64,000 bases of DNA from Bacteroidota bacterium (GCA_003164895.1 PLUL01000039.1:4307-68306), one strand, 5' to 3'. Counted from the first letter of the stretch, positions 28,849-53,972 are shown. Notes: generated by a model from the sequence alone, not told the origin. Made by a program: numbers and translations.

Positions 28849-28851
28849 TTT

Positions 28852-31161: not shown

Positions 31162-31194
31162 ATAAATAAAAGAAACGATAAAAAACTAAAATAT

Positions 31195-32103: not shown

Positions 32104-32164
32104 TTAAAAAAATAAATAGAAAATAAAATTTAAAACACAAACCGCCTCTTTAAAAAATAACCCT

Positions 32165-32992
32165 ATGAAAAAATCAATTACCCTAACATTAGCAGGCATC
32201 GTTGCCATTGGAGCTATGTCGTTCGACATTTTAACGAGCAATGGAAAAGCAGGAAAGACCGGTGCATATACTGAAGGCAATTGCACAAGTTGCCACAGTG
32301 ATTATGCTGTCAATTCAGGACCTGGATCCATTGCGATTACATCCACTCCGTCACTTACAAACGGTTATGTTGCCGGAACTACTTATACAGTAAATGTAAC
32401 AGTAGCACAGTCAGGAGTTTCTCTTTTTGGATTTGATTTTGAAGCCTTAACAAATGCAACTACCAATGGAGGAACGCTTGCCGTTGTTTGTACTGATACT
32501 AAAACCTTAGCTTCATCAAGTCGGACTGATGTTGTTCACACAGGAACCGGTAATGCTACCGCAGATTCACATACATTTTCTTTTGTGTGGACCGCACCCA
32601 CCACTGGTACTAGCACCGTTACTTTCTATGCATCTGGAAATGCCGCTGATGGAGATGGATCAACAAGTGGTGACTATATATATACAACATCATTACCCAT
32701 TTCTAATGTTACCAGTGTAGAAGAAAACGTTGAAGCAAACTTTAACCTCTCAGTTTTTCCAAATCCGGTTTCTGATAATGTTAATGTTAAATTTACTTTA
32801 ATGGAAACATCTGATATTACCATTGATCTGATGGACATTAACGGGAACAAAATTGCCAATATTATTTCTGAAAACGGAATGAAAGGCGACATCAACAAAA
32901 CCTTTAATGTTTCTTCTTATTCCAAAGGAGTTTATTTTCTGCAAATAAAAAATGAGAAAGCATCATCTATTAAAAAATTAATTATTAAATAA
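32165..32992 (+). CDS. T9SS-sorted protein with N-terminal CXXCH-containing Reeler/DOMON-like beta-sandwich domain
   Basis: Signal peptide, GNCTSCHSDY (CXXCH) at the start of the mature domain, FSFVWTAPTTGTSTVTFYASGNAADGDG (Reeler-like pattern), and T9SS tail VFPNPVSDNVNVKF...GVYFLQIKNEKASSIKKLIIK. Confidence 0.6.
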   Translation: MKKSITLTLAGIVAIGAMSFDILTSNGKAGKTGAYTEGNCTSCHSDYAVNSGPGSIAITSTPSLTNGYVAGTTYTVNVTVAQSGVSLFGFDFEALTNATTNGGTLAVVCTDTKTLASSSRTDVVHTGTGNATADSHTFSFVWTAPTTGTSTVTFYASGNAADGDGSTSGDYIYTTSLPISNVTSVEENVEANFNLSVFPNPVSDNVNVKFTLMETSDITIDLMDINGNKIANIISENGMKGDINKTFNVSSYSKGVYFLQIKNEKASSIKKLIIK

Positions 32993-33061
32993 TATTTATT
33001 TGGCGCATGAAATCACTTCGGATATCAGAAAAAAAATATCTGAAATAAAATTGAAAAGTTT

Positions 33062-33970
33062 ATGGAAGGGAACGACAATAACAACGATCGCAGGAATTTT
33101 TTGAAGGCAGGATTGCTAACAGGCGGTTCATTATTAGCCGCATCTGCATTGCAATCTGTTTTTTCATCTGAAAAAGATTCCGGTGAAAAAGTAAAAGTGC
33201 TTACCACCGATGGGAAATTGGTGGAAGTGGATTCTACTCACATCAAGAAAGCTCAACCTTGTTGTGTCAATTCCAAGGAATCGCGTGTTGGAATTCCTGA
33301 TAAAAAATTTGTGATGGTAATTGATATGTCTCGTTGTAAAGATGCACTCAAATGTCAGAAGTCATGCGCTAAGCATCATGCATTACCCGAAGATGTGAAA
33401 TGGCTAAAGGTTTTAAAAATGCAGGAGTCGGAAGAAACTGCTCCATACTGGATGCCGAAACCATGTTTTCATTGCGATCATCCGCCTTGCGTGAAAGTTT
33501 GTCCGGTTGATGCAACTTATAAAAGGAGTGATGGAATCGTGTTGATAGATAATGAGCGTTGTATTGGTTGCAGATTTTGCATGGCAGCTTGTCCGTATTC
33601 CGCAAGATCATTTAATTGGGGAGAACCAAAAATCCCTACTGATGCAAATTATTCTCCCGAAACAAGTGTGCCAAGAAAAAAAGGAACAGTTGAGAAATGT
33701 GATTTCTGTCCTGATATGTTAAGGCAAGGAAAACTTCCGCATTGTGTTTCAGCTTGTCCGAATGGTGTATATTATTTTGGTGATTTGAATGAAGATACGG
33801 TTACCAATGGTGATGAAACACTTAGGTTTAGTCAGCTTATTAAGGATAAAGCAGGTTACAGAGAATTGGAATCACTCGGTACAGAACCGAGCGTTTATTA
33901 TTTGCCAGCTGCAAATCGAATTTTTCCTTTTAAAGATAGAGTGGAAAATAAAGAGGAACATCAACATTAA
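33062..33970 (+). CDS. Tat-exported 4Fe-4S ferredoxin-type subunit (NrfC/PsrB/ActB2-like), module 1
   Basis: Twin-arginine motif DRRNFLKAGLL. Cluster motifs CFHCDHPPCVKVCP, CIGCRFCMAACP and CDFCPDMLRQGKLPHCVSACP are present. The first cluster motif is atypical (CKDALKCQKSC). Confidence 0.8.
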   Translation: MEGNDNNNDRRNFLKAGLLTGGSLLAASALQSVFSSEKDSGEKVKVLTTDGKLVEVDSTHIKKAQPCCVNSKESRVGIPDKKFVMVIDMSRCKDALKCQKSCAKHHALPEDVKWLKVLKMQESEETAPYWMPKPCFHCDHPPCVKVCPVDATYKRSDGIVLIDNERCIGCRFCMAACPYSARSFNWGEPKIPTDANYSPETSVPRKKGTVEKCDFCPDMLRQGKLPHCVSACPNGVYYFGDLNEDTVTNGDETLRFSQLIKDKAGYRELESLGTEPSVYYLPAANRIFPFKDRVENKEEHQH

Positions 33971-34032
33971 TTTATGCAATTTATTTTTCAAAAAAAATTA
34001 AAGAGTGATTTGAATAAATAATTTTTCAATTT

Positions 34033-35403
34033 ATGGAAGACATCGTAAAACCGGCAAATGACGCAGAAGCAATTAAAATGTTGCACCAATTTAATGAGGA
34101 TTTATTGCCAAAAAAATTTGGTAAGATTGGTGTAACATGGGTGCTTTTTCTTTGCGTTATCATTATTAATGGATTATTTTTTTACGTCAAACAATTAAGA
34201 AATGGATTAAGTGTAACCGGAATGGGCGACATTGTTTCATGGGGAATTTATATATCCAATTTTGTTTTTTTTGTAGCAATAAGTTTGGTCGGTTCATTAA
34301 TTACTGCCGTACTTTACCTTTTAAATGTAAACTGGCGCTCACCGCTTACACGGATTGCAGAAATTATTGCAGTCGCAGCCATCGTTTTTGCCGGTCTTAT
34401 TATTATAGTAGATATGGGGCGACCGGATCGAATTCTGAACATGTTTATTTATGGAAGAATTCAATCGCCAATAGTTTGGGATGTGATAGTTGTAATGACT
34501 TATATGACGATAAGTCTTTTACTTCTATATTTTCCGTTGCTTCCTGGAATTGCTTTTTGCAGAGACCGTCTTCCTGGTATTCCAAAATGGCAGAAATGGA
34601 TGTACAAATTCTTATCATTTGGATGGCAATGGAAACCGGAACAATTCAAAATTGTGAAAAGAGCTATTGCAATTTTATCGGTACTAATTATTCCGGTTGC
34701 GTTTAGCATTCACACCGTTACTTCGTGGTTATTTGCTACTACATATCGTCCGGGCTGGGACAGCAGCATTTTCGGTCCTTACTTTGTAGCCGGTGCATTT
34801 ATGGTGGGAGCTGGTGGAGTTATTGCTGCCATGTACGTTCTTGTAAGATTTTTTCCGCGCTACGACAAGTATATCACCGATAAACATTTTGACCGCATGG
34901 GAATTTTACTTGCGTTGCTCTCCATGGTTTATTTATACTTTAATATAAATGAATACATGGTTCCCGGTTATAAAATGAAAGGTGAAGATGCACAATACCT
35001 CACAGAATTATTTGTAGGAAAATTTGCGATGATGTTTTGGTCAGTTCAGGTTTTTGGAATGATAATTCCCATTATTCTTCTTTTGTTCAAAAAATTCAGA
35101 CGCCCTTTTCCGATTTTTATTATTTCGATTTGTGTGATTGTCGGAGCATGGTTCAAACGTTTTCTGATTGTCATTCCTACTTTACTTCATCCCTTTCTTC
35201 CAATTCAGGAGGTTCCCGAAAAATTTAAAGTATACATACCCACTCTTGCGGAATGGTCAATCACTCTTGCCTCATTGGCTGGAGCGTTATTAATCATCAC
35301 AGTTTTTATTCGTTATTTTCCAATTATTTCTATTTGGGAAGTGGCTGAAGAAAGAGGAATAGGACATGATGTAATTTATAAACATTTAAACGAAAAAGAA
35401 TGA
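34033..35403 (+). CDS. NrfD/PsrC/ActC-like polytopic quinone-interacting membrane subunit, module 1
   Basis: 456 aa with ~10 hydrophobic helices. Family-like segments include VSWGIYISNFVFFVAISLVGSLI, DMGRPDR and GPYFVAGAF. It lies directly after the FeS gene, the classic NrfC-NrfD order. Confidence 0.75.
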   Translation: MEDIVKPANDAEAIKMLHQFNEDLLPKKFGKIGVTWVLFLCVIIINGLFFYVKQLRNGLSVTGMGDIVSWGIYISNFVFFVAISLVGSLITAVLYLLNVNWRSPLTRIAEIIAVAAIVFAGLIIIVDMGRPDRILNMFIYGRIQSPIVWDVIVVMTYMTISLLLLYFPLLPGIAFCRDRLPGIPKWQKWMYKFLSFGWQWKPEQFKIVKRAIAILSVLIIPVAFSIHTVTSWLFATTYRPGWDSSIFGPYFVAGAFMVGAGGVIAAMYVLVRFFPRYDKYITDKHFDRMGILLALLSMVYLYFNINEYMVPGYKMKGEDAQYLTELFVGKFAMMFWSVQVFGMIIPIILLLFKKFRRPFPIFIISICVIVGAWFKRFLIVIPTLLHPFLPIQEVPEKFKVYIPTLAEWSITLASLAGALLIITVFIRYFPIISIWEVAEERGIGHDVIYKHLNEKE

Positions 35404-36347
35404 AAAATAAAATATCATCTCAGAGGCGGATACTTTCACACATTTATTCATTAGTGATTTTGCTATTAATAAATGGATTTGTTCTCGTTGGAAATAAGGC
35501 AATGTGTCAGGGCAAACAGGAAGGTGCAGAAAAAAAATCCATTTCCATCTCTCTAAGCTGTAAAACTTCCGATGGATTAAAACAAGTTAAAGTAAAAGCT
35601 ACTCGCAGAGAGAATAAAAAAAGTATTCCGCTAGATAATGCAAAATCTCCTATCGCATTATATTTTGATAAAGTTGGAGATAAAGATCCATCAAATGGAA
35701 CTGGACTTATTGGTAAACTTTATTTGAATGATGATGGAGAAGTGAATTTTGATCTTCCAGATAATTTTAATTCACAAACATCTGGGTTACATCAATTCAA
35801 ATTTATTGTCAAGTTGGAATCAGATCCATTGTATGAAGATGCTCAAGAAGAAATTTCTATTTCAGATGCAAAAATCAATATTGATTATTTCGGAAAGGAT
35901 TCTATCAAGACAGCAACAGCAACATTAACCGAATGGAAAGATACTGCGTATGTTCCTGTTTCAGGAGTAGAAATGAAACTATCCATCAAAAGAGCATTCA
36001 GTCTGTTTTCCTTTGGCGGTGAAGGACTTACTACGGATAAAAGCGGAAATGTATCTGCTGATCTTCCTTTGGATATTCCCGGAGAACCAGGTGGAAAAAT
36101 TACAATTGTTGCAAGTGTGATTGACAACGATACTTATGGTTCGCTTGAAAGTACAAAGAAAGTAGAGTGGAGTGTTCTTCCCAAAACAAACGAAGAAATT
36201 GGACGAACACTTTGGTCAAGAGGAAATAACGCGCCAATTTCATTAGTCATTATTTCTTGTTCCATCATTGCGGTAATCTGGGGAATACTGATTTATCTTG
36301 TTTTCCAGTTATTTAAAATAAAAAAAATAAGTAAACAACAAGCGTAA
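35400..36347 (+). CDS. Uncharacterised periplasmic beta-rich protein with C-terminal membrane anchor, module 1
   Basis: ATGA start/stop overlap with the NrfD-like gene (35400-35403). It has an N-terminal hydrophobic leader and ~250 aa without Cys/His cofactor motifs. A C-terminal TM (ISLVIISCSIIAVIWGILIYLVFQLF) is followed by a basic tail. Paralogue at 40219-41094. Confidence 0.6.
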   Translation: MKNKISSQRRILSHIYSLVILLLINGFVLVGNKAMCQGKQEGAEKKSISISLSCKTSDGLKQVKVKATRRENKKSIPLDNAKSPIALYFDKVGDKDPSNGTGLIGKLYLNDDGEVNFDLPDNFNSQTSGLHQFKFIVKLESDPLYEDAQEEISISDAKINIDYFGKDSIKTATATLTEWKDTAYVPVSGVEMKLSIKRAFSLFSFGGEGLTTDKSGNVSADLPLDIPGEPGGKITIVASVIDNDTYGSLESTKKVEWSVLPKTNEEIGRTLWSRGNNAPISLVIISCSIIAVIWGILIYLVFQLFKIKKISKQQA

Positions 36348-36401
36348 AATAAAACACAAACCAAAAATCAATACTAACACTAAAAACCAAGGAGGCAATT
36401 T

Positions 36402-36854
36402 ATGAAATCAAATCCAAAACAACCAACTTTTGCAGCAGTTACAACGGTAATCATGCTGTTTGTATTTGTAGGAATGCTCAGTATGTCATTCATGAATAAT
36501 TCTCAGGATGATAAAAAGAAAAAACCATGGGTAGTACTGGAAAAATCGAAAGCAATGAAAAACCCTGTGAAAGCGGACGCTACTTCACTATCGAAAGGAA
36601 AAGAATTATATACTAAACATTGTAAATCGTGCCATGGATCCGCAGGAAAAGGCGACGGACCTAAAGCAAAAGAATTAGATACTCCAACCGGTGATTTTAC
36701 TGACAAATCATTTCAGGCGCAGACTGAAGGAGAGATTTTTTACAAAGCTAAAGAGGGTAGAGATGATATGCCAAGCTTCAAGAAAAAACTTCCGGAAGAC
36801 GAAGATATTTGGACGATCGTTAATTATGTGCGTTCATTATCAGGAGCGAAATAG
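36402..36854 (+). CDS. Membrane-anchored class I monohaem cytochrome c, module 1
   Basis: N-terminal TM segment, CKSCHG haem motif, distal Met region GRDDMPSF, conserved C-terminal WTIVNYVRSL. Confidence 0.8.
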   Translation: MKSNPKQPTFAAVTTVIMLFVFVGMLSMSFMNNSQDDKKKKPWVVLEKSKAMKNPVKADATSLSKGKELYTKHCKSCHGSAGKGDGPKAKELDTPTGDFTDKSFQAQTEGEIFYKAKEGRDDMPSFKKKLPEDEDIWTIVNYVRSLSGAK

Positions 36855-36878
36855 TTTTATGAATTCATTTTTTTAAAC

Positions 36879-36914
36879 AACAGGGAAAAGAATATCAAAA
36901 ATCTTTTCCCTGTT
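36879..36914 (+). terminator. Intrinsic terminator after module 1
   Basis: AACAGGGAAAAGA (36879-36891) pairs with TCTTTTCCCTGTT (36902-36914) as a 13-bp perfect stem, followed by AATTTATGT. Confidence 0.6.
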
Positions 36915-36935
36915 AATTTATGTCTCAATTAATTT

Positions 36936-37424
36936 ATGCAACTTGAAAAAGAAATACACCAGGTCAAGCCATTCAGGAACGACTATCATAAAGCGTCTGT
37001 AAATATTGTTTATACAGGAAAATGGATGATGCAGTTTCATGCAGATATATTAAAACCCTACGGCTTAACAATTCAGCAATATAATATTCTACGAATCTTA
37101 CGAGGTCAATATCCAAATGCCACAACGGTAAAACTTATTCGTGAACGGATGCTCGATCGTATGAGCGATGCATCTCGAATCGTTGAACTCCTCCGAAAAA
37201 AAGGATTAGTTGAGAGAACTATTTGCGCAGGAGACAGAAGAAGGATGGATGTCGTAATCACTCAACTTGGTATTTATCGGTTGATTGAAATTGAAAATGA
37301 AAACGAGCGTATGGATAAACGTCTCTTTAGTTTAGATGATCAAGAAATTATTCAACTGAATACACTTCTTGATAAAATCAGGAATATTCCTGATATTTTG
37401 CCTTCTGTTGTACCTTCATTATAG
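36936..37424 (+). CDS. MarR family transcriptional regulator
   Basis: 162 aa winged-helix pattern: LTIQQYNILRILRG...RMLDRMSDASRIVELLRKKGLVER...DRRRMDVVIT. Paralogue at 48569-49030. Confidence 0.8.
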   Translation: MQLEKEIHQVKPFRNDYHKASVNIVYTGKWMMQFHADILKPYGLTIQQYNILRILRGQYPNATTVKLIRERMLDRMSDASRIVELLRKKGLVERTICAGDRRRMDVVITQLGIYRLIEIENENERMDKRLFSLDDQEIIQLNTLLDKIRNIPDILPSVVPSL

Positions 37425-37462
37425 TATTCCATCTTATTTCACAATGTTATAATCACCAAAAG

Positions 37463-37476
37463 TTGATATAAATCAC
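37463..37476. promoter_or_regulatory. FNR-type box TTGATATAAATCAC
   Basis: TGAT-N4-ATCA core with a canonical TTGAT left half-site, embedded in AAAAG...CTTTT flanks, 229 nt upstream of the module 2 ATG (37705). Confidence 0.45.
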
Positions 37477-37704
37477 TTTTGATTATGACGAGAATCATTT
37501 CAATTCATGATTCAAGTCATTGCCCTGATTCGTAAACATATTCACATTTGCTCATTAAATGTTACAACAACTTATGTTATACAATTTTAAAAAAAAACAA
37601 ATATGCAAAAAAAATTAGATGTGTGAGGCAAATCATTTTATATAGTAATATATCTCTATTTCTTAAATGAAAAAAATCACTAATGCACATAAAAAAATAA
37701 TATT

Positions 37705-38700
37705 ATGATAGACCAAAATGAACAAAATGGAAACGGCTCAGGAGCTGAATCTAAGGCAACAGGCAGACGAAACTTCCTTAAGTTCGGTGCTTTAGCAGCA
37801 GGACTTACTGTAGTGGGTGGTGGACTACAGAAAGTTTTGTCTCAAGATAAAAAGGAAAACCCAGATACCACCGTGTTCACACGAGATGGAAAGGTTTTCA
37901 AAGCCGACAAAGCATGTTTGCATGAATACACTGCTCCGCCGGTAACAAATGCCGAAGCCCGCATAGGTATTCCCGGTAAAAAATTTACTATGGTGTTTGA
38001 TCTTGCAAAGTGCGATGGTTGTAAAAAATGTACTGAATCCTGTCAGGCAATGCACTTTACTGAATCCGACCGTGAATGGATAAAAGTGTATAAGATGAAG
38101 GATGCTGAAACAACCGCTTCCTATTATATGCCCAAACCTTGTATGCATTGCGACAATCCTCCTTGCACAAAAGTTTGTCCGGTTGGAGCAACTTTCAAAA
38201 GAGAAGATGGTATTGTTCTAATTGATGATGATAGATGCATAGGTTGTCGTTCTTGCATGGCTGCATGTCCTTACTCTGCACGTTTTTTCAATTGGTCAGA
38301 TCCAATGCAACCTGTAGCTGTTGCTAATATCCCTTATTCCCCAGAACATGGATTTCCACGCCAAAGAGGAACGACTGAAAAATGTGATTTCTGTCCACAC
38401 ATGATTCGTGAAGGGAAAATGCCCGCTTGTGTATCTGGATGTCCAATGCAAGCAATTTATTTTGGCGATCAGAATGAAGATGCTGTAACAAATTCAGCCG
38501 GGGTTACTGTAAAATTCAGCCAGCTTTTAGAAGATAATAGTGCTTATCGATTATTGGAAGAATTAGGAACAGAGCCACGTGTATATTATTTGCCTCCTAA
38601 AAACAGGAAATATCCTAAGCCAGATATGGAATCTATAGGAAAGGAAAATAAGATTGAAGGCGGAAAATCTGATACAGGAATGGGAAATATGGCTATGTAA
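37705..38700 (+). CDS. Tat-exported 4Fe-4S ferredoxin-type subunit (NrfC/PsrB/ActB2-like), module 2
   Basis: Twin-arginine motif GRRNFLKFGAL and four complete cluster motifs: CDGCKKCTESC, CMHCDNPPCTKVCP, CIGCRSCMAACP, CDFCPHMIREGKMPACVSGCP. Confidence 0.85.
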   Translation: MIDQNEQNGNGSGAESKATGRRNFLKFGALAAGLTVVGGGLQKVLSQDKKENPDTTVFTRDGKVFKADKACLHEYTAPPVTNAEARIGIPGKKFTMVFDLAKCDGCKKCTESCQAMHFTESDREWIKVYKMKDAETTASYYMPKPCMHCDNPPCTKVCPVGATFKREDGIVLIDDDRCIGCRSCMAACPYSARFFNWSDPMQPVAVANIPYSPEHGFPRQRGTTEKCDFCPHMIREGKMPACVSGCPMQAIYFGDQNEDAVTNSAGVTVKFSQLLEDNSAYRLLEELGTEPRVYYLPPKNRKYPKPDMESIGKENKIEGGKSDTGMGNMAM

Positions 38701-38748
38701 AAATGACAAAACAAAAAATTAATCATAAGAAAATTAAATAAAAAAAAT

Positions 38749-40188
38749 ATGAGCAAAATAATTTATCCAGACAGTCATATTCCGGCAGAACTTTCAGAAG
38801 AAGTTATCCGCGAAGACAGCATGCGCCCAACTATGAAATGGGGACGAAGCACTCAACTTTGGCTTGGCTTTTTATTTATGGTTTTTGGTTGGGGACTTTA
38901 TGCATATATACATCAATTAAGACATGGACTGGGAGAAACAGCCATGCGTAATTATGTTTCCTGGGGATTATACATTTCCACTTTTGTATTTTTCATCGGC
39001 ATCAGCCATTCCGGCACACTTGTTTCAGCGATTCTTAGAATCACAAAACAAGACTGGAGAATGCCGATCACACGAATTGCAGAGTTGATGACTTTTGTAT
39101 CTCTTTGTTTTGGCGGTCTTATGCCTATTATTGATTTAGGTCGTGCAGATCGCATTGCAAACCTTGTCATTTTCGGAAGAGTACAATCACCACTCATGTG
39201 GGATGTGATGTCAATCGTAACTTATTTTACAGGAAGCACAATCTTCTTATGGCTTCCTATGATACCAGACATGGGACTGATGAGAGACAGATTAACAGTA
39301 GTTGATACTCCGTTCAAAAAATTCAAAAAGTGGCTTTACAAAACATTGGCGATTGGTTGGACAGGTTCAAAATCTCAGTGGAAACGCTTGGAGTTAGTGA
39401 TGACAATTATGACAATCATTATTATTCCTGTAGCAGTTTCTGTTCATACAGTTGTAAGTTACATTTTCGCGATGACACTTCGCCCTGGATGGAACAGTAC
39501 TATATTTGGTCCGTACTTTGTGGCTGGTGCATTGTACAGCGGTTCGGCAGTAGTAATTCTTGCCATGGTTATTTTCCGAAAACTTTATCATCTTGAAAAA
39601 TATATCACCTATAGACATTTTGATCTGATGGGTCGAGTGGTATTGTCGCTGACACTTATATATGGATATCTGAACCTGAATGAATATTGGATTCCTGCCT
39701 ATAAAATGGCAACTTCAGAAGGCCATTTGTTACACGATTTATTTAGTGGAAGTTATTCTACCGCTTTTTGGTTATGCCAGTTCGGAACAGTACTTTTTCC
39801 AATTGTTGTAATGTGTTTTCCAAAAGGACGAACACCGGGAGCGCTTACTGTCGTTTGTATATTTATAGCAATTGGAGCTTGGGTAAAACGTTATCTCATT
39901 GTGGTTCCTACACTATTGCATCCTTTTTTACCAATACAAGATGTTCCATTGACTTGGTCGCAATATTTTCCTAATTGGGTTGAATGGTCAGTTACGATGG
40001 CAGCATTTTCAGGAATGGTAATCATTGTAACTCTTTATGCGAAATTTTTTCCAATGATGTCAATGTGGGAAGTTGTGCACGGAGCTCACATAGAAGAAAG
40101 TAAAAGGGTTGCATTTGAAAAAGTTGAGCATGCAGAAGAAATAAATGAAGCAAAAACAAATCATAAAAAAGCAACAGTAGTTGGATAA
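38749..40188 (+). CDS. NrfD/PsrC/ActC-like polytopic membrane subunit, module 2
   Basis: 479 aa, clear paralogue of 34033-35403 (VSWGLYISTFVFFIGISHSGTLV, DLGRADR, GPYFVAGALY). Confidence 0.78.
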   Translation: MSKIIYPDSHIPAELSEEVIREDSMRPTMKWGRSTQLWLGFLFMVFGWGLYAYIHQLRHGLGETAMRNYVSWGLYISTFVFFIGISHSGTLVSAILRITKQDWRMPITRIAELMTFVSLCFGGLMPIIDLGRADRIANLVIFGRVQSPLMWDVMSIVTYFTGSTIFLWLPMIPDMGLMRDRLTVVDTPFKKFKKWLYKTLAIGWTGSKSQWKRLELVMTIMTIIIIPVAVSVHTVVSYIFAMTLRPGWNSTIFGPYFVAGALYSGSAVVILAMVIFRKLYHLEKYITYRHFDLMGRVVLSLTLIYGYLNLNEYWIPAYKMATSEGHLLHDLFSGSYSTAFWLCQFGTVLFPIVVMCFPKGRTPGALTVVCIFIAIGAWVKRYLIVVPTLLHPFLPIQDVPLTWSQYFPNWVEWSVTMAAFSGMVIIVTLYAKFFPMMSMWEVVHGAHIEESKRVAFEKVEHAEEINEAKTNHKKATVVG

Positions 40189-40218
40189 TGCAAAATAATA
40201 AATAGAAATATAACAACA

Positions 40219-41094
40219 ATGAACAATATGAAAATAACCAGAATTACATTAGCAGCAGTTCTTTTCTGCGGAGTTTCATTTGCGCAAGCTCAAAAAGCAG
40301 AAAGCAGTCTTCAATTATCATTTTCTAAGCAAACTGATAATAGTAAAACTATAAGCGCATTAGTGATGGGAAAAAAGAGTGGCGAAAAATTTAAGCCCGC
40401 ATCAAATGCTCACATCAGTTTTTATGCACAGAAAGAAAAAGAATTAGTTCTTCTTTCAAAAACGGTATCCGATGATCGTGGCAAAGCAACATTAACTCTT
40501 CCTAAAGATTTACCATTGGATGCAGATCATTTTTTCGGTATAACTGTAAAAGTTGAAAACGATGATACGTTTGAAAACTCAGAAGAAAAATTAAAATTAA
40601 AGGATGTAAATCTTTCTCTTAAACTTAATCCGCATGACACAGCGAGAGTCGCAACTGCAACTGTTACTGAAATTACCGATGAAGGAACTGAGAAAGCAGT
40701 AAAAGATGTTTCGATTAATTTTTATGTGCAGCGCTTATTTGGAAAAATGCCAGCAGCAGAAGATCACACGGTTAAAACAGATGAAAAGGGTATAGCAGTT
40801 TTTTCTTTTCCTAAAGGAATTCCTGGTGATACTGCTGGAAGTATGACAGTACTTGCTATGATTGAGGATAACGATTCGTATGGAACAGTGGAAAGTAAAA
40901 GTTCCACCAATTGGGGAGTTGTTGTGCCTCTCGAAAAAGATCCGTTTCCTCGAGCTATTTGGGGAGCAAAAGCACAATGGGGAATGATAATCACGCTTAC
41001 AATTCTTTATGGTGGAGTATGGTCGTCATACATCTTCATGGCTTTTCAATTAAGAAAAATAAAAAAAGAAGAAAATTTAACAACCAATAATTAA
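40219..41094 (+). CDS. Uncharacterised periplasmic beta-rich protein with C-terminal membrane anchor, module 2
   Basis: Signal peptide ending AQA, no cofactor motifs. Blocks shared with 35400-36347 include ATATVTEITDEG vs ATATLTEWKD, GIPGDTAGSMTVLAMIEDNDSYGTVES vs IPGEPGGKITIVASVIDNDTYGSLES. C-terminal TM plus basic tail. Confidence 0.6.
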   Translation: MNNMKITRITLAAVLFCGVSFAQAQKAESSLQLSFSKQTDNSKTISALVMGKKSGEKFKPASNAHISFYAQKEKELVLLSKTVSDDRGKATLTLPKDLPLDADHFFGITVKVENDDTFENSEEKLKLKDVNLSLKLNPHDTARVATATVTEITDEGTEKAVKDVSINFYVQRLFGKMPAAEDHTVKTDEKGIAVFSFPKGIPGDTAGSMTVLAMIEDNDSYGTVESKSSTNWGVVVPLEKDPFPRAIWGAKAQWGMIITLTILYGGVWSSYIFMAFQLRKIKKEENLTTNN

Positions 41095-41119
41095 TCACTA
41101 ATACTTAAAAATAAACACA

Positions 41120-41590
41120 ATGAAAACTATTATCACACAAGTAAGCAAAATGAAACTTTCAGGTTTCATTTTAATTGGAGCACTTGCAATTTGCAGTGCG
41201 TTTATTCCAAAGCCAAAGGGAGAAGTAATTAATTTAGTTGGTGGACAGGAAAAATGGGTTGCACCGGCAGATGCTGATAAGAAAACCAATCCGAATGCTT
41301 CTGATCCCAAAAGTCTTGCTACAGGTAAAGACATTTTTATTCAAAAATGTGCTATTTGCCATGGTAAAAAAGGAAAAGGTGATGGACCAAAGAGCGCAGA
41401 ATTAGACAAACCAGTGCCAGATTTTACAAAAGGCGATTTCAGCAAACAAAGCGATGGTGCGATCTTCTGGAAAATTGCCGAAGGAAGAAAACCAATGCCT
41501 TCTTTCAAAAGTGAACTTTCTGAAGTGCAACGCTGGCAGGTAATAATTTATTTAAGAGAACTTGGAAAGACCACTACTTCACAAAAATAA
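41120..41590 (+). CDS. Class I monohaem cytochrome c, module 2
   Basis: CAICHGKKGKGDG, GRKPMPSF, WQVIIYLREL; same family as 36402, 46539 and 53531. Confidence 0.8.
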   Translation: MKTIITQVSKMKLSGFILIGALAICSAFIPKPKGEVINLVGGQEKWVAPADADKKTNPNASDPKSLATGKDIFIQKCAICHGKKGKGDGPKSAELDKPVPDFTKGDFSKQSDGAIFWKIAEGRKPMPSFKSELSEVQRWQVIIYLRELGKTTTSQK

Positions 41591-41659
41591 AAGAAAATAA
41601 TAATAACAACTATTTACCTATACCAACAAATCAATTAACCAATTAATAATACAATTAAC

Positions 41660-43120
41660 ATGAAAAATTTAAACAAAAAATTAGTGTCTGCCTTTATGAT
41701 GGGGGCATTCATTGTACTGGGGTTGTCGAATTGCAAAAAAAAGGATGAGGTACTTGACTTACCACCCGCACCCGCACCAACACCAGTATTAAATACTGAT
41801 ACTTTGTATTCAGTTCCTGGAACTGCCACACTTCAAGCAATAGGCGGAGCTGCGTGGGATGGTACAATTGAAGGAGTTTGGAATAATGCACCTGCATTAA
41901 ATGTAACCGGTACAGTGCCAGATTTAGGAAATGGAACTTTTACAGGATATGTTGGTAACAGTACTCAAATTAAATTACGTTCCTTATACGATGCGAGCAA
42001 TATTTATTTTCTTTTTGAATTTGCTGCTGACCGTCCGAACGTGCTAAGTGCACAATGGTATTTTAATCCAACAACACATCTTTGGGCGCAGGAAGCTACC
42101 GCTGCCAGTTTAACTAATTTGAATCCTGATGGAAGTTACAGACCTCCTTTTTCACAGGATGAAATTGTAATGATGTTTAATATTTCAGATGCAACATTTA
42201 ATACATTATCTTGTTATGCTGCTTGCCATGTCATGTCTTCGTATGGATATTCAGTTACACCTTCAGGCGGATACATGGCTACAAATGGTCCTAGTGAAAG
42301 ATTAGATGTGTGGAGAATGCGCACGTTTCAGACTATGCCTATGAACCAAGTAAATGACTGTTTTATTGATGATGGTTCAAGCATTGGATTAGGAGAAAGT
42401 GGTGTGTTAGATAAAAATATGGTTCACAGCGATTGGCAGGTAAATAATGGTCCGGCATCTTCTGTACCTCCAAGCTTACAATCACCTGGAGTAGTGGTAT
42501 CAGCACCTACTGCAACATCAAAAGTTTATGCAGCAGATGGAGGATTCAGCAATAAGCAAACATTAAAACTAAGCGGAGGATCAAATCCGGCGAATGCATT
42601 CCCTGCTGCTAATGGAGGAAAAGTATCGGTTCCAATTTGGGTAATAGAAGGTGCTGCCGGAACTAATCCATATAGCAGTAAACAAGGTGCAATCTTTACT
42701 TCAGATACCGGTGCAACAGCAGTTATGGTTATAGGAGTTGATTCTACTACAGGAATTTTACATCTAAAAGATGGAAATACTTTAGATCCTCGAACTTCAA
42801 CATCAGGTACTGCTTATCAGCAAGTAGGAACCGGAGATGGACCAAATTGTATTCCTGGTTCTATTGTTAGTGTATATACCGGTAGTCGTGGTGATGTAAC
42901 ATGTAATGGATTTTGGACAGGATCAGGTTGGAGATTCTTATTCAAACGTGCATTGAAAACAAGTGATAATGTTAATGACGTTGATTTCTCTTCTCTTGGC
43001 AATCAGCCATTTGGTGTTGGCGTAATGTTTAACGGCGCTGATAACGAACATGCTATTGTAGCTGGCTTGACATTGCATTTTGGTCAAAGAGGAAGTGCTC
43101 GTATTAAAAAAACAAAATAA
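41660..43120 (+). CDS. Lipoprotein with ethylbenzene-dehydrogenase-like (EB_dh, DOMON superfamily) haem-binding-type domain
   Basis: Lipobox GLSNC. Segments fit my recollection of the EB_dh family pattern: WNNAPALNV...IKLRSLYDASNIYFLFEF, LDVWRMR, GWRFLFKRALKTSDNVNDVDF, GVGVMFNGADNEH. It contains CYAACH (CX3CH). Confidence 0.5.
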   Translation: MKNLNKKLVSAFMMGAFIVLGLSNCKKKDEVLDLPPAPAPTPVLNTDTLYSVPGTATLQAIGGAAWDGTIEGVWNNAPALNVTGTVPDLGNGTFTGYVGNSTQIKLRSLYDASNIYFLFEFAADRPNVLSAQWYFNPTTHLWAQEATAASLTNLNPDGSYRPPFSQDEIVMMFNISDATFNTLSCYAACHVMSSYGYSVTPSGGYMATNGPSERLDVWRMRTFQTMPMNQVNDCFIDDGSSIGLGESGVLDKNMVHSDWQVNNGPASSVPPSLQSPGVVVSAPTATSKVYAADGGFSNKQTLKLSGGSNPANAFPAANGGKVSVPIWVIEGAAGTNPYSSKQGAIFTSDTGATAVMVIGVDSTTGILHLKDGNTLDPRTSTSGTAYQQVGTGDGPNCIPGSIVSVYTGSRGDVTCNGFWTGSGWRFLFKRALKTSDNVNDVDFSSLGNQPFGVGVMFNGADNEHAIVAGLTLHFGQRGSARIKKTK

Positions 43121-43126
43121 GTTAAT

Positions 43127-43158
43127 GGGTACTGGGATAAATTTTTATCCCAGTACCC
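43127..43158 (+). terminator. Strong hairpin after the EB_dh-like gene (possible terminator or processing site)
   Basis: GGGTACTGGGATA pairs with TATCCCAGTACCC as a 13-bp perfect stem, 7 nt after the stop. No T-tract follows on the plus strand, so a terminator function is uncertain. Confidence 0.4.
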
Positions 43159-43193
43159 AAAACCAAAAACGATTAACAATTAAAATACTCATC

Positions 43194-43595
43194 ATGAAAA
43201 AAGCACTAATATTTATGACTGCAGTGGGCATGTTGTTAATTGCTGTTGTAACAGGTTGTCAAAAAAACGCAACATTTATTTACAAAGCCCCGACAGTTGT
43301 AGTTACTACTCCGGTTTCTTTTAGTAAAAATCTGGTTCCACTTTTTACTGCAAATTGTGCTCTGAGCGGTTGTCATGTATCAGGAGGTCAGACTCCGAAT
43401 TTAACGGCAGCTTCAGCATACGCATCGTTATCAGGCGGCAATTTTTTTAATGTTAGCAATCCGTCAAGCAGCATAATATACGAGCGATTAACAGGAACAC
43501 TTACTCCGGAAATGCCTTTTGGAAAACCCAATAACCCATCCAACATTAATGCTCTGGTATTGGCGTGGATTACACAAGGAGCAAAGAACAATTAG
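43194..43595 (+). CDS. PSCyt-like lipoprotein with CX4CH motif (paralogue of 30739-31161)
   Basis: Start taken at ATG 43194 (MKKALIFMTAVGMLLIAVVTGC, lipobox). Also LVPLFTANCALSGCHVSGGQTPNL...PEMPFG...ALVLAWITQGAKNN. The longer ORF-track start overlaps the upstream gene. Confidence 0.55.
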   Translation: MKKALIFMTAVGMLLIAVVTGCQKNATFIYKAPTVVVTTPVSFSKNLVPLFTANCALSGCHVSGGQTPNLTAASAYASLSGGNFFNVSNPSSSIIYERLTGTLTPEMPFGKPNNPSNINALVLAWITQGAKNN

Positions 43596-43620
43596 GAAAA
43601 AACAATTAAAAAATAATAAA

Positions 43621-44535
43621 ATGAAAAAAAATATAAAACAATTTGCAATCTGGATGCAAATAGGAATAGTTGCCTATTTGCTATTTGCAATTGGTAATAA
43701 TGTCTGCGCACAGGATAGCACCTCAGCTAAATCTGTAGCTAAGATAGAAAGAGTAAGAAATACTTTTCTTGGCAATATGCTTATTGATAATCAAACGGTG
43801 ATGGTGCCAGTTAAAAAAACTTTTGAGTTTACTATTCAGCACCGCTTTGGAACTATCAATAACGGTTATACAGATATGTACGGACTATTTGCCACTGCCA
43901 ACATGCGCTTGGGATGGAATTATACTCCTATTGATAATTTGCAATTAGGTGTTGGAATATGCAAGGAAAATATGCAGTGGGATGGCAGTGTTAAATATGC
44001 AATTACCAAACAAGCTGTATCTCACGGTTGTCCGGTAAGCGTTACTTATTTTGGAGATATGGCGGTGTCAACTCTTCCGCTGAAAGGAAATTTTGCAAAT
44101 GATGCCGACAGAATTTCGTATTTCAATCAATTAATTGTAGCTAGAAAAGTTACAAGTCATTTTTCAGTTCAGGTGTCACCAAGTTTATCTTATTATAATA
44201 ATGTGGCAGGATATATGAGTGCCGAAGGAACTGTTAAACCAACAATGAATAATGCTCAGCTTTCTGTTGCTACAATGGGTTGTTATATGATTACCGGTGG
44301 AATGGGTATTATTGTTGACTACGATCAGCCGCTTACTCAAAACCCAACTAATAATCCATGTCCCAACGTAAGTTTTGGAATTCAGTTTGCAACCATTACT
44401 CACACATTTCAGGTATTTCTTGGAAACTTCCAAGGTATTCTTCAGCAGTCAAATAATTTCTTTAACCAAAATGATTATACACAAAGCAGATATTTAATAG
44501 GATTTAATATTACTAAACGTTGGAATTATTTTTAA
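43621..44535 (+). CDS. Outer-membrane beta-barrel protein (HRFG-motif family), second copy
   Basis: Start taken at ATG 43621 (MKKNIKQFAIWMQIGIVAYLLFAIGNNVCAQ). Also FEFTIQHRFG, RISYFNQLIVARK and C-terminal FNITKRWNYF. Confidence 0.6.
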   Translation: MKKNIKQFAIWMQIGIVAYLLFAIGNNVCAQDSTSAKSVAKIERVRNTFLGNMLIDNQTVMVPVKKTFEFTIQHRFGTINNGYTDMYGLFATANMRLGWNYTPIDNLQLGVGICKENMQWDGSVKYAITKQAVSHGCPVSVTYFGDMAVSTLPLKGNFANDADRISYFNQLIVARKVTSHFSVQVSPSLSYYNNVAGYMSAEGTVKPTMNNAQLSVATMGCYMITGGMGIIVDYDQPLTQNPTNNPCPNVSFGIQFATITHTFQVFLGNFQGILQQSNNFFNQNDYTQSRYLIGFNITKRWNYF

Positions 44536-44660
44536 TCGGCAATAATACTTTTCATAGGGTTTGTATTCGCCCCTCGCTGTTATTCCTTCTGTAAATTGAA
44601 GAATGAACGGAGGGGTGAAAAACAAAATTTCTTTCAGATAGAATTTGAAATGAAAAAATA

Positions 44661-44990
44661 ATGAGTCAACCAAAAACATATTCTCCAACAATGAAGGTGA
44701 AAAATATCAGCCACCTTTTGCAAATGCTTCGATTTGAAGATATGCAAAACACCGGAAGTCAAGAATTACCTCCGGGACAATGCATAGTTCTGGAGCGATT
44801 TGTTGGCAAGGAAAATGTTTCGGAACCAAATTTAAATTTTGGATTAGCTGAAGTAGTTGGAAGTGTGCAGTATGAGATAAACTTTACGCAAGCTGATGTT
44901 GGAAAAACAATTTATTACCGATGCTGTTATATAAGTACTCAGGGTAAAAAAAGTCCTTGGAGTAAAACTCTAACGGTTGTCATAGTTTAG
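44661..44990 (+). CDS. Orphan 109-aa ORF, function unknown (possibly a gene remnant)
   Basis: Open frame only. It has no signal peptide, no recognisable motif and no paralogue in the window, and sits between a hairpin-terminated operon and the regulator pair. Confidence 0.25.
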   Translation: MSQPKTYSPTMKVKNISHLLQMLRFEDMQNTGSQELPPGQCIVLERFVGKENVSEPNLNFGLAEVVGSVQYEINFTQADVGKTIYYRCCYISTQGKKSPWSKTLTVVIV

Positions 44991-45035
44991 AAAAAATAAT
45001 TTGGTGATGTTTGCTATGCCATTAAATGAATTACA

Positions 45036-45761
45036 ATGAGCAAAAAAATTATCTGTAAAAAATGTAGTAACTCAGCATGTTTTATTAAAAAACATTGTTC
45101 ATCCGATTGGTTAAAAAGAATTGAGTTAAAAAAAATTCAAATTGAACATCAGGCGAAGGATATTATTTTCCGTGAAGGCGGTTATATGGAAGGTGTTTAT
45201 TTTATTCAACAGGGAAAAGTAAAAGTGGTAGCAAAAGGGGCCAATAACAAAGAACAAATTGTTAGAATGGCAATTGATGGACAGATATTAGGTCACCGTG
45301 GATCGGGCGATGACAAATACCCAATTAGTGCCATCGCGTTATGCGACACTACGGTTTGCTTTATTGACAACGATACGCTTTACGATGCATTTATGGAAAT
45401 TCCAAAACTTACTTTGCAAATGATGGAATTCTATTCTCGTGAATTGCGTCGAACAGAAATAAGAATGAAATACCTCACCCAGATGAATGTGAAAGAAAAA
45501 ATTGCAGAATCATTACTTTTTCTCAAGCAAGTTTTTGGAATCAAACCTAATGATGGAACTATAAATGTTTGTTTGACACGATGTGAAATTGCAAGTATGA
45601 TTGGTGTTACTGCTGAACAGATTAGTCGAGACATTGGAGTATTTGAAAAGAAAAAACTAATCAAAAAAAAGGGGCGATTTGGAATAAAACTGGTTGATGA
45701 AAATGGATTGCACGATATTGTCAGAAAATATGGGATAGAACAATACGTCGAACAAAGATGA
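45036..45761 (+). CDS. Crp/Fnr family regulator with N-terminal Cys4 cluster (FNR-like)
   Basis: CKKCSNSACFIKKHC (C-x2-C-x4-C-x5-C), conserved VCFID cysteine, recognition helix TAEQISRDI with the FNR-type E-x-x-S-R. Confidence 0.8.
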   Translation: MSKKIICKKCSNSACFIKKHCSSDWLKRIELKKIQIEHQAKDIIFREGGYMEGVYFIQQGKVKVVAKGANNKEQIVRMAIDGQILGHRGSGDDKYPISAIALCDTTVCFIDNDTLYDAFMEIPKLTLQMMEFYSRELRRTEIRMKYLTQMNVKEKIAESLLFLKQVFGIKPNDGTINVCLTRCEIASMIGVTAEQISRDIGVFEKKKLIKKKGRFGIKLVDENGLHDIVRKYGIEQYVEQR

Positions 45762-46477
45762 AAACAATAGTTAGTTGCAACGAGTGTAGTAATACTGTTT
45801 GTTTAATTAAACAGCACTGCCTTCCTATTTGGAAAGAAAAAATTGATGCGAATAAAATCCAAATGCGATACATGGCGGGTGATTATATTTTCAGAGAAGG
45901 AAATAAAGTGTATGGAATATATTTTATCAAGCACGGAAAAGCAAAAGTAATATCAACAGGATTAAACGACAAGGAACAAATTGTTCGACTTGCTGCTAAC
46001 GGACATATATTGGGACATCGAGGTTACGGAGGAGAATCTTATCCTGTGAGCGCAATGGCTTTGTGCGATACATCCGTCTGTTTTATTGATAATGATTCAT
46101 TTTATGATGTGTGTATGAATAATCCTCAGTTCACTATGGAAATGACCATGTTCTATTCTCGCGAACTGCGTAAAGCCGAGATACGATTAAAATATCTTGG
46201 TCAAATGTCTTGCAGAGAAAAAATTGCAGAAGCACTACTTTATTTAAAAGATATTTTTGGAATGGACGAAGAAAAAAAATGTTTGAATGTTTATTTAACC
46301 AGAAAGGAAATTGCAGATATGGTTGGAACGACCTCCACTCAGGTAATCAGAGAACTTCATGTATTGGAAGCGGAAAAACTTATTGCCAAACAGGGAAAAG
46401 GAACACTCTTGCTGATAAACATGCCGGGGTTAGAAAATATTGTCAGCAATTACGAAATGAAACAACAATTTGTGTGA
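45758..46477 (+). CDS. Crp/Fnr family regulator with N-terminal Cys4 cluster, divergent recognition helix
   Basis: ATGA overlap with the previous gene. CNECSNTVCLIKQHC is present, but the recognition helix TSTQVIREL lacks the E and S of the FNR motif. Confidence 0.8.
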   Translation: MKTIVSCNECSNTVCLIKQHCLPIWKEKIDANKIQMRYMAGDYIFREGNKVYGIYFIKHGKAKVISTGLNDKEQIVRLAANGHILGHRGYGGESYPVSAMALCDTSVCFIDNDSFYDVCMNNPQFTMEMTMFYSRELRKAEIRLKYLGQMSCREKIAEALLYLKDIFGMDEEKKCLNVYLTRKEIADMVGTTSTQVIRELHVLEAEKLIAKQGKGTLLLINMPGLENIVSNYEMKQQFV

Positions 46478-46538
46478 TAAGAATGATTTATAATTTTGTA
46501 GTGATAAATCAACACATAAATTCAATAAATAAAATACT

Positions 46539-46961
46539 ATGAAAAAATTTAAAATCCGTAAAGCATCAATGTTGGCAGGCATAGCAACTGTTGTCATCGC
46601 TCTATCATTGGCATTTCAGCAAAACAAAGAATGGAAAGCGCCAGATTCGGCAAAAGACAAAAAGAATCCCATCACTTCGGATGATGCTTCAATTGCTGCC
46701 GGTAAAAAAATTTATGAAAAAGATTGTATTAACTGTCATGGAAAAAAAGGTAAAGGTGATGGCAAGGACGCAGCAAATCAAGATGTAACAGTTGCTGATT
46801 TAACTTCATCCAAAGTTCAATCTCAAACCGACGGAGAAATTTTTTGGAAAGTCAGCGAAGGAAGAAAGCCAATGCCATCAAATAAAAAAGATCATTCTGA
46901 TGAACAACTTTGGCAAACAGTGAATTACCTGCGCACACTTGGTAAGTCAGTAAAAAAGTAA
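46539..46961 (+). CDS. Class I monohaem cytochrome c
   Basis: Signal/anchor peptide, CINCHGKKGKGDG, GRKPMPSN, WQTVNYLRTL. Confidence 0.8.
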   Translation: MKKFKIRKASMLAGIATVVIALSLAFQQNKEWKAPDSAKDKKNPITSDDASIAAGKKIYEKDCINCHGKKGKGDGKDAANQDVTVADLTSSKVQSQTDGEIFWKVSEGRKPMPSNKKDHSDEQLWQTVNYLRTLGKSVKK

Positions 46962-46986
46962 ATAATGGTACAAAAATAAATACAAG

Positions 46987-48204: not shown

Positions 48205-48217
48205 AAAATTTATAACG

Positions 48218-53956: not shown

Positions 53957-53972
53957 TTATCTAACTATAAAT

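Follow-up and report, generated by a model that had tools for sequence, protein, structure and literature searches.

The stretch of DNA analyzed here (the window) comprises 64,000 nucleotides (nt) from a Bacteroidota bacterium (GCA_003164895.1, PLUL01000039.1:4307-68306) and has the low GC content, about 36-38%, of Bacteroidota DNA. We focus on positions 37705-41590, which harbor the second of two diverged copies of a putative respiratory module built from an iron-sulfur (FeS) protein, a membrane protein of the NrfD family, an anchor with immunoglobulin (Ig)-like domains and a monoheme cytochrome c. This copy, module 2, is compared with module 1 located upstream and considered together with the genes for predicted outer-membrane proteins that adjoin both. 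The interval is exactly filled by four closely spaced open reading frames (ORFs) on the same strand:

37705-38700, + strand: FeS subunit of module 2, 331 amino acids (aa), exported by twin-arginine translocation (Tat), Fer4_11 family, 16 cysteines for four [4Fe-4S] clusters
38749-40188, + strand: integral membrane subunit of the NrfD family (PF03916), predicted to bind quinol, 479 aa, ActC-like
40219-41094, + strand: third subunit, 291 aa, with a signal peptide, two Ig-like beta-sandwich domains and a C-terminal transmembrane (TM) helix, weak match to Big_1
41120-41590, + strand: monoheme class I cytochrome c, 156 aa, heme motif C77-AI-C80-H81 (CAICH), families Cytochrome_CBB3 and Cytochrom_C

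ORF and Pfam analysis bore out the coordinates, families and order given in an earlier sequence-only reading of this DNA, which had described a four-gene unit followed by an EB_dh-like lipoprotein. The FeS subunit matches Fer4_11 (PF13247) with 84 bits (cut-off 26.2) and the NrfD subunit PF03916 with 115 bits (cut-off 25.8). Gathering-level scores for both families, a Tat signal and 16 cysteines served as the test of membership, and all were found in module 2: the twin-arginine sequence RRNFLK occupies residues 21-26 of the FeS protein, and its cysteines form four canonical motifs (C103/106/109/113, C146/149/154/158, C178/181/184/188 and C227/230/242/246).

The third subunit was modeled with AlphaFold2 as two Ig-like sandwiches on a C-terminal TM helix (predicted local distance difference test, pLDDT, 85.4), and its sequence contains no cofactor motif. 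It yielded no sequence match in the PDB, and Foldseek returned generic tandem-Ig folds only; a likeness to ActD was weighed and dropped. The anchor family comprises 1124 representative clusters in a search of 1.84 billion proteins, and its named members are labeled merely "hypothetical" or "Ig-like" in the source databases.

Sequence identical to the window is present in peat metagenome assemblies and in a contig of a metagenome-assembled genome (MAG; GCA_003168055.1), and the module 2 genes are identical or nearly so across three independent assemblies. When compared with orthologues, these genes show ratios of nonsynonymous to synonymous substitution rates (dN/dS) of 0.05-0.27, with dS saturated, and are under purifying selection. 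Pseudogene-like features in one copy, which the sequence-only reading had named as evidence against its own view, were not seen in module 2, where all ORFs are intact.

Two Diverged Copies of the Module

The comparison copy lies upstream on the same strand:

30739-36854, + strand: module 1 system of seven genes, in the order lipoprotein, DUF5777 barrel, CxxCH "choice-of-anchor V" protein secreted by the type IX secretion system (T9SS), FeS, NrfD, anchor and cytochrome c
33062-33970, + strand: FeS subunit of module 1, 302 aa, 15 cluster cysteines
34033-35403, + strand: NrfD subunit of module 1
35400-36347, + strand: anchor of module 1
36402-36854, + strand: cytochrome c of module 1

The same four families occur in the same order in both modules, as had been read from the sequence. 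Global alignment gave protein identities of 52.3% for the FeS subunits, previously estimated at half to two-thirds, 43.3% for NrfD, 28.5% for the anchors and 36.3% for the cytochromes c, and nucleotide similarity is confined to two short patches of 68-71%. These low values and the restriction of DNA similarity to two patches argue for a diverged copy and not a recent repeat. Moreover, the lipoproteins adjoining the two modules are paralogues (41% identical), and so are the DUF5777 barrels (41%). The description of a duplicated four-gene unit therefore holds for the four genes but falls short of the full extent; the duplicated unit comprises seven genes per module.

Phylogeny, Synteny and Age of the Duplication

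Relatives of the NrfD subunit were collected by a pattern scan in which each of 185,579 GTDB species was represented by a single genome; it yielded 573 proteins, and the best 80 loci were analyzed with up to 21 kb of DNA each. The proteins encoded by this island of the window were mapped onto the 80 loci, and neighbor-joining (NJ) trees were built from the NrfD and FeS proteins. In these trees the M2-type sequences (about 31 loci) form a single tight clade with 60-86% identity to module 2, and the M1-type sequences, including module 1, form a separate, broader sister clade (41-49% identity to module 2). Chloroflexota and Thermoplasmatota MAGs contain FeS-NrfD pairs that lack the other two genes and branch outside both clades. 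These pairs from archaea (Thermoplasmatota/Methanomassiliicoccales; L051, L057, L058, L061, L082) and Chloroflexota (L052, L065, L069, L070, L072, L083) are 44-52% identical to module 2, lack the anchor and cytochrome c genes, and may stem from errors in binning or else represent distant relatives disseminated by transfer.

Both types occur in tandem in seven further species (L009, L016, L018, L019, L022, L024 and L028), and the arrangement matches that of the window. The M1-type copy is located upstream and the M2-type copy downstream in all seven; genes of the MarR and Crp families lie between the copies in six, and an unassigned ORF takes this place in L028. The tandem arrangement together with the separate clades indicates that the duplication predates the divergence of these lineages, in agreement with the old duplication proposed by the sequence-only reading. 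One Chitinophagaceae MAG (L024:1-13256) encodes three consecutive modules, in the order divergent copy, M1-type and M2-type, and its M1-type copy is the closest relative of module 1.

That reading had also asked whether both copies are always present in relatives, and had taken variable presence as evidence against specialization. Joint presence is conserved in these seven species but not universal: the tandem was found in seven of about 19 M2 loci having enough upstream DNA, and most M1-bearing genomes have no M2-type match among the best 80 of the 573 relatives. Formally, this variability counts against the reading; the criterion was poorly framed, however, since variation is to be expected of an accessory, specialized module.

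Relation of the Subunits to Characterized NrfD Complexes

The best PDB matches of the NrfD subunit are ActC chains (6btm_C, 8k9e_C, 6f0k_C and 6lod_C; E values of 1e-59 to 1e-67), headed by ActC of the alternative complex III (ACIII) of Flavobacterium johnsoniae (6btm_C, 8e-67). When compared with the list of functional ActC residues (PMC8076601), Ser164, Asp169, His247 and Arg395 are kept, and His139, Asp253 and Glu394 are replaced by Asp, Ile and Lys, respectively. Of the residues found in place of these three and next to Arg395, an alignment of 10 sequences including both modules shows Asp129, Lys380 and Arg381 to be invariant, and the replacing Ile239 nearly so. The closest PDB matches of the FeS protein are ArrB, PsrB and the C-terminal domain of ActB, and ActE is among the best matches of the cytochrome c (6f0k_E, 8e-10; 6btm_E, 5e-6).

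In the NCBIfam ranking DsrO/DsrP came first, followed by QrcC, TtrB, NrfC and ArrB. Only DsrO of module 1 reaches its cut-off, and this borderline (200.6 bits vs 200; module 2, 191.6), whereas DsrP (module 2, 113.9; module 1, 141.8; cut-off 350), NrfC (134 vs 378), TtrB (142 vs 416), ArrB (131 vs 450), QrcC (141-158 across the modules; 157 vs 400) and QrcD (81 vs 570) remain below. Neither the window nor the recurrent neighbors in the 80 loci include genes for molybdopterin or multiheme proteins, DsrMKJ, ActA or ActF. The recurrent partners of FeS-NrfD are instead the Ig-domain anchor (62 loci) and the monoheme cytochrome c (52 loci).

A single ORF of 306 aa encodes a fusion of cytochrome c with the Ig-domain anchor in Marinifilum, Ancylomarina and relatives (L079:11324-12244 in Marinifilum flexuosum; also L071, L073, L078 and L080). 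By the Rosetta-stone argument this fusion suggests that the anchor tethers the cytochrome. In the Marinifilaceae, the FeS-NrfD-fusion unit is immediately followed by the cbb3 oxidase genes ccoI and ccoNO (fused), and so occupies the place expected of a quinol:cytochrome c oxidoreductase. Genes for cytochrome bd flank the other side of the Marinifilum-type unit.

The Adjoining Outer-Membrane Gene Set

Each module of the window is accompanied by genes for predicted outer-membrane or surface proteins:

32165-32992, + strand: CxxCH "choice-of-anchor V" protein with a T9SS secretion tail, preceding the module 1 FeS gene
41660-43120, + strand: EB_dh-fold lipoprotein, 486 aa (PF09459, 53 bits vs 33.3), with an N-terminal lipoprotein-like signal
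43194-43595, + strand: small lipoprotein with a conserved C-x4-CH and a PSCyt1-like C-terminus, paralogue of 30739-31161
43621-44535, + strand: DUF5777 outer-membrane beta-barrel (PF19089, 222 bits) ending in WNYF, paralogue of 31195-32103

The set follows module 2 in the order EB_dh protein, lipoprotein and DUF5777 barrel, and precedes module 1 in the order lipoprotein, barrel and CxxCH protein. Lipoprotein and barrel genes adjoin the module, either upstream or downstream, in 38 of the 80 loci, and in the tandem genomes L009, L018 and L019 each module has a set of its own. Likewise, all three EB_dh homologues chosen by EB_dh similarity alone are located in FeS-NrfD-anchor(-cytochrome c)-EB_dh-lipoprotein-DUF5777 clusters. 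What varies is the first position of the set, always occupied by an extracytoplasmic domain of a cofactor-binding type: EB_dh (33 loci), a YceI-like domain (12 loci) or, at module 1 of the window, the CxxCH protein, whose T9SS tail implies export to the cell surface. Homology between the CxxCH protein and the EB_dh protein was rejected, as their global alignment score is insignificant, and the two are therefore treated as different domains in the same position.

Among 63 homologues of the EB_dh protein, C185-x3-C189-H190, Met206 and His464 are invariant. These residues are compatible with heme, possibly covalently bound; to our knowledge, EbdC-type heme b subunits lack CX3CH. The AlphaFold2 model (predicted TM-score, pTM, 0.80) was matched by Foldseek to NxrC (7b04_C, 1e-8), EbdC (2ivf_C, 1.6e-5, target-normalized TM-score 0.67) and CBM9. 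The small lipoprotein can also be read from 43080 or 43125, and the start at 43194 (MKKALIF...) gives a lipoprotein signal; its C...GCH is kept in at least 80% of 42 homologues, and its paralogue at module 1 matches PSCyt1 weakly. As is typical of outer-membrane proteins, the barrels terminate in aromatic residues (WNYF, LWNF).

Elsewhere in the window, two gene pairs (46539-48204 and 53531-55229) encode a small monoheme cytochrome c and, behind it, a protein of 405 or 418 aa. The cytochromes (140 and 141 aa) share 40-51% identity with those of the modules. The two larger proteins share 29% identity and have no match in Pfam or NCBIfam; each has a signal peptide and F as its last residue, as in outer-membrane barrels. 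A pair of this kind, or just its barrel, replaces the EB_dh-lipoprotein-DUF5777 set behind the M2-type module in L005, L006, L013 and L014; the pair might serve as an alternative partner and loosely resembles a split Cyc2. A further small c-type cytochrome (152 aa, CIACH) precedes a polytopic membrane protein of 441 aa without family match at 55947-57780.

A Class-Specific Difference in Cluster Ligands

In the FeS protein of module 1, motif I reads CKDALKCQKSC (C-x2-A-x2-C), with Ala95 in the place of Cys106 of module 2. The sequence-only reading had described all four motifs as intact, which is correct for module 2 (16 of 16 cysteines) but not for motif I of module 1. In an alignment of 82 FeS proteins, cysteine is found at this position in 38 of 38 all-Cys proteins, a group that comprises the M2-type and the outgroups; L048, with an NrfD that branches basally in the M1 clade, is counted among them. 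Ala, Leu, Val or Glu takes the place of this cysteine in each of the 44 M1-type proteins. In a subclade centered on the Marinifilaceae, the second Cys of motif IV is in addition replaced by Ser.

Loss of the middle cysteine from C-x2-C-x2-C is the classical signature of a [3Fe-4S] cluster in four-cluster ferredoxins, as in NarH, DmsB mutants and ActB. By analogy with NarH and PsrB, motif I would build the cluster furthest from the membrane subunit, at the exit towards the partner protein. The M1-type loss is therefore predicted to yield a higher-potential [3Fe-4S] cluster, or no cluster at all, at an exit where M2-type proteins would hold a [4Fe-4S] cluster, presumably of low potential. No other observation backs the difference in redox potential suggested by the sequence-only reading as concretely as this one; the difference in potential remains a prediction.

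The two copies also differ in the cofactor protein that accompanies them, the T9SS-secreted CxxCH protein at module 1 and the EB_dh lipoprotein at module 2. The specialization suggested by the sequence-only reading thus gains support of a comparative kind, from the class-specific cysteine pattern (38 vs 44 proteins), the separate clades, the purifying selection on module 2, the separate outer-membrane sets and the different cofactor protein of each copy.

Candidate FNR-Type Boxes and Regulator Genes

Several regulatory elements are located within or next to the island:

36936-37424, + strand: MarR-family regulator (MarR_2) between the modules, its position kept in L009, L016, L018, L019, L022 and L024
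37464-37475, + strand: FNR/CRP-type palindromic box TGATATAAATCA in the 280-nt leader of module 2, 230 nt upstream of the FeS ATG
45036-46477, + strand: two tandem FNR-like Crp-family regulators of 241 and 239 aa (45036-45761 and 45758-46477; cNMP_binding, HTH_Crp_2)

The exact sequence TGAT-N4-ATCA occurs seven times in the window, with 2.4 expected, and none of 100 shuffles reached this number. The full FNR consensus TTGAT-N4-ATCAA with one mismatch is not enriched in the window (11 vs 8.9), only the core is. A second box (30485-30496), which shares the extended element TGATWTAAATCACTWTTGA with that at 37464, is located 243 nt upstream of the module 1 lipoprotein gene (30739), at the head of the seven-gene operon. 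It is 2.5 kb away from the module 1 FeS gene, and the 69-nt gap directly before that gene contains no box. The earlier statement that each copy stands behind its own leader with such a box therefore applies to module 2 (37464-37475); at module 1 the box precedes the outer-membrane genes.

When at most one mismatch was allowed, the box was found upstream of M2-type FeS genes in 16 of 32 loci (shuffles 6.3 +/- 2.3, maximum 11), upstream of crp genes in 10 of 17 loci (2.7 +/- 1.3) and upstream of M1-type FeS genes in 13 of 30 loci (7.1 +/- 2.2), with 39 hits in 192 unrelated spacers (30.7 +/- 5.1). A third Crp-family gene is located at 29529-30278. All three Crp-family proteins contain an N-terminal C-x2-C-x4-C and a central Cys, and their best NCBIfam matches, Fnr and FnrL, lie below cut-off with alignments spanning the N-terminal Cys region. 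Rfam searches for a riboswitch or small RNA in the long leaders gave no match at E <= 1 within 29000-48500, and scans for promoter and terminator consensus sequences remained at or below shuffle expectation.

The remaining exact boxes are intergenic (9507, 10158, 49289 and 63441) or lie within an ORF (47226). Some precede genes for T9SS-secreted proteins (10353-13310; a SprB-repeat protein, 49512-52346), which hints at a wider regulon including cell-surface proteins. The MarR gene between the modules has a paralogue, 72% identical, at 48563-49030 behind a cytochrome/barrel pair. Directly upstream of M2-type operons in L011, L012, L021, L053 and L086 we observed genes for a HisKA_3 kinase and a LuxR-type response regulator, and in L004 for the regulator alone. 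The kinase looked NarX-like by eye; in Pfam it matches only HisKA_3 and HATPase_c, with a weak match to a PilJ/NarX-like sensor domain in one precomputed annotation, and nitrate sensing is not claimed.

A Putative Minimal Menaquinol:Cytochrome c Oxidoreductase

On balance, we lean towards the reading of module 2 as a functional paralogue that diverged long ago and forms a minimal, ACIII-like menaquinol:cytochrome c oxidoreductase; it would feed co-encoded outer-membrane heme proteins under FNR-type control, and the two classes would be tuned to different partners. From the gene content, families, conservation, phylogeny, synteny, cysteine patterns and motif enrichment obtained with the tools described above, we infer cofactor occupancy, the path and direction of the electrons, localization at the outer face and the pairing of regulators with the box as follows. 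Quinol would be oxidized on the periplasmic side of the ActC-like NrfD subunit, and the electrons would pass through the four [4Fe-4S] clusters of the Tat-exported FeS subunit to the ActE-like monoheme cytochrome c, held at the complex by the Ig-domain membrane anchor. The cytochrome would in turn reduce the presumably co-transcribed outer-membrane set of CX4CH lipoprotein, DUF5777 barrel and EB_dh-fold heme lipoprotein, which may present heme at or near the cell surface to an acceptor. FNR-type regulators probably switch expression via the TGAT-N4-ATCA box, with the MarR regulator in between. M2-type modules would pair with the EB_dh protein, and the M1-type module in this genome with the T9SS-secreted c-type heme protein.

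Several observations weigh against this reading. Two of the four residues of the ActC quinol site (His139 and Asp253) are replaced, and the quinol chemistry may therefore differ. CX3CH and CX4CH are unusual as heme-attachment motifs, and the CX3CH region of the EB_dh model has low confidence (pLDDT about 57-64). The barrel of about 300 aa (DUF5777 profile, 247 positions) is far smaller than MtrB-type barrels, which have some 26 strands, and all three outer-membrane proteins could face the periplasm. Many M1-type loci are without any outer-membrane set, and the exact box is found upstream of merely two of 32 M2-type operons. Finally, metatranscriptomes of the same study gave no signal over 32140-48500: shared words amounted to 0.00, the matches obtained (18-24 nt) were all spurious, and in runs X8 and X13 the even coverage of genes and spacers resembles that of DNA.

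Electrons might also flow inwards, from an external or periplasmic donor such as Fe(II), reduced humics or sulfur species through the outer-membrane heme proteins and cytochrome c to menaquinone at NrfD, in the manner of Qrc. We consider this unlikely, though NrfD-family complexes are known to run both ways, with Qrc, Hyd-2 and Nhc acting as quinone reductases (PMC8076601). The all-[4Fe-4S] chain of the M2-type would be compatible with low-potential donors, and reduced humics and iron abound in peat, the source of the DNA. QrcC and QrcD rank among the better NCBIfam matches, but their scores lie far under the cut-offs. Moreover, the M1-type unit of the Marinifilaceae is located beside a cbb3 oxidase, which needs reduced cytochrome c and thus implies quinol oxidation, and FNR-type control is more typical of acceptor-side respiratory branches.

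It appears improbable as well that the copies are redundant isoforms of a complex III substitute for cytochrome c oxidase, with the outer-membrane genes as unrelated passengers. The cbb3 context in six Marinifilaceae and related loci contains no outer-membrane genes, the absence of the set from many M1-type loci, noted above, points in the same direction, and the cultured M1-type-bearing Chitinophagaceae Pinibacter and Danxiaibacter are described as aerobes. However, the lipoprotein/barrel linkage recurs across families and in both gene orders, and it was recovered in every locus selected by EB_dh similarity; the provision of a separate set for each copy in three tandem genomes and the class-specific cluster ligands likewise argue against simple redundancy. 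That FeS-NrfD is the membrane module of a classical Psr/Ttr/Arr/Nrf/Dsr-type enzyme with its catalytic subunit encoded elsewhere in the genome seems very improbable. The best NCBIfam matches (DsrO/DsrP, TtrB, NrfC, ArrB) point to such an enzyme, and homologues are named "molybdopterin oxidoreductase membrane subunit" or "polysulfide reductase NrfD" in databases. In contrast, the scores lie below the curated cut-offs save for module 1 DsrO, and the partners conserved among the 80 loci are the anchor and the monoheme cytochrome, with no molybdopterin, multiheme or DsrMKJ gene recurring.

We put forward as a tentative and rather doubtful proposal that the seven-gene unit is a hitherto undescribed, envelope-spanning electron conduit of Bacteroidota without multiheme cytochromes. 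Here an ACIII-like dehydrogenase would pass electrons to a monoheme cytochrome c, then to the CX4CH lipoprotein on the DUF5777 barrel, and finally to an exchangeable surface carrier (EB_dh/DOMON-like heme protein, YceI-like quinone or isoprenoid binder, or T9SS-secreted heme c protein). The two classes might be tuned to acceptors or donors of different potential, e.g., iron or humics in peat.

Respiratory membrane modules of the NrfD family form a major class whose cataloguing is still under way. The unit described here is widespread, with 573 relatives among the genomes scanned. A minimal quinol:cytochrome c oxidoreductase would explain how cytochrome c oxidase or outer-membrane redox proteins are supplied in some Bacteroidota. 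If the link to the outer membrane is true, it would represent a new route of extracellular electron transfer in Bacteroidota of peat, lakes and soil, one that marker-gene surveys based on Mtr or Cyc2 would miss. The class-defining cysteine loss provides a simple, testable handle on the tuning of paralogous respiratory modules.

Upstream of the island, 20152-29358 contains hemE (uroporphyrinogen decarboxylase) and genes for a phosphate-type ABC transporter, radical SAM and 6-pyruvoyl-tetrahydropterin synthase-family proteins; heme synthesis aside, we saw no link of these genes to the island.

Comparison with Known Systems

A literature search of incomplete coverage, in which absence is not proof, retrieved no published description of this system and no paper mentioning DUF5777, and the catalogue of NrfD-containing complexes lists none of this composition (PMC8076601). 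One of the closest known systems is ACIII (ActABCDEF) of Bacteroidota, Rhodothermus and Chloroflexus, a quinol:cytochrome c oxidoreductase. The unit shares with it an ActC-like NrfD subunit, both having about 10 TM helices, an FeS subunit resembling the C-terminal ferredoxin domain of ActB, and a cytochrome c resembling ActE; in addition, the Marinifilaceae unit adjoins cytochrome c oxidase genes, as act clusters often do. It differs in lacking the pentaheme ActA, the second NrfD-like subunit ActF and ActD, with the Ig-domain anchor in their place. Furthermore, ActB comprises about 950-1040 aa with a molybdopterin-like N-terminal domain, whereas the FeS subunits described here (302 and 331 aa) align only to ActB residues of about 770-1025. 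The non-Cys position that marks a [3Fe-4S] cluster is located in motif III of ActB (Thr in RCIGTRYC), in motif I of the M1-type and nowhere in the M2-type; motif III is all-Cys in both modules.

DsrOP of DsrMKJOP and QrcCD of Qrc likewise combine a periplasmic, Tat-exported FeS protein and an NrfD subunit of 10 TM helices serving a c-type cytochrome. Here, however, DsrM, DsrK, DsrJ, QrcA and QrcB are absent, the DsrP and Qrc scores are far too low, and the hosts are Bacteroidota without a sulfate-reduction context. NrfABCD, PsrABC, TtrABC and ArrABC differ by their catalytic gene (NrfA or a Mo-bisPGD enzyme), which is present neither in the window nor in the 80 loci, and by scores below cut-off. 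A stand-alone NrfCD of Melioribacter roseus, also without catalytic subunit, was proposed from genome annotation only to oxidize quinol and reduce periplasmic cytochromes, possibly feeding an outer-membrane Fe(III) reductase (PMC3534657). The Ig-domain anchor, the dedicated monoheme cytochrome c, the DUF5777/lipoprotein/EB_dh set and the two paralogous classes are not described there (PMC3534657).

With regard to the surface proteins, the likeness to the EB_dh gamma subunits EbdC and NxrC is one of fold, detected by Foldseek with a predicted model, and the role of a heme-carrying terminal domain is likened by analogy to these subunits and to DOMON-type domains such as the CDH cytochrome domain and the plant CYBDOM ferric reductases. 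In contrast to EbdC and NxrC, the protein in the window is twice as long, has large insertions, is a lipoprotein and is not tied to a molybdoenzyme. With the porin-cytochrome conduits (MtrCAB, PioAB/MtoAB, Pcc) and Cyc2, the system would share the logic of a quinol dehydrogenase in the inner membrane, a periplasmic c-type carrier, a barrel in the outer membrane with a heme lipoprotein on its periplasmic side, and a heme protein on the surface side. Unlike the Mtr and Pcc conduits, it contains no multiheme proteins but a single C-x(2-4)-CH motif per protein, and its terminal carriers are EB_dh/DOMON-like, YceI-like or of the choice-of-anchor V type. Taken together, the unit falls outside ACIII, Dsr, Qrc, Nrf, Psr and Mtr, since for each of these at least one of the tested defining features is missing; what is new here is the subunit set of an NrfD/FeS respiratory module, together with its possible extension to the outer membrane.

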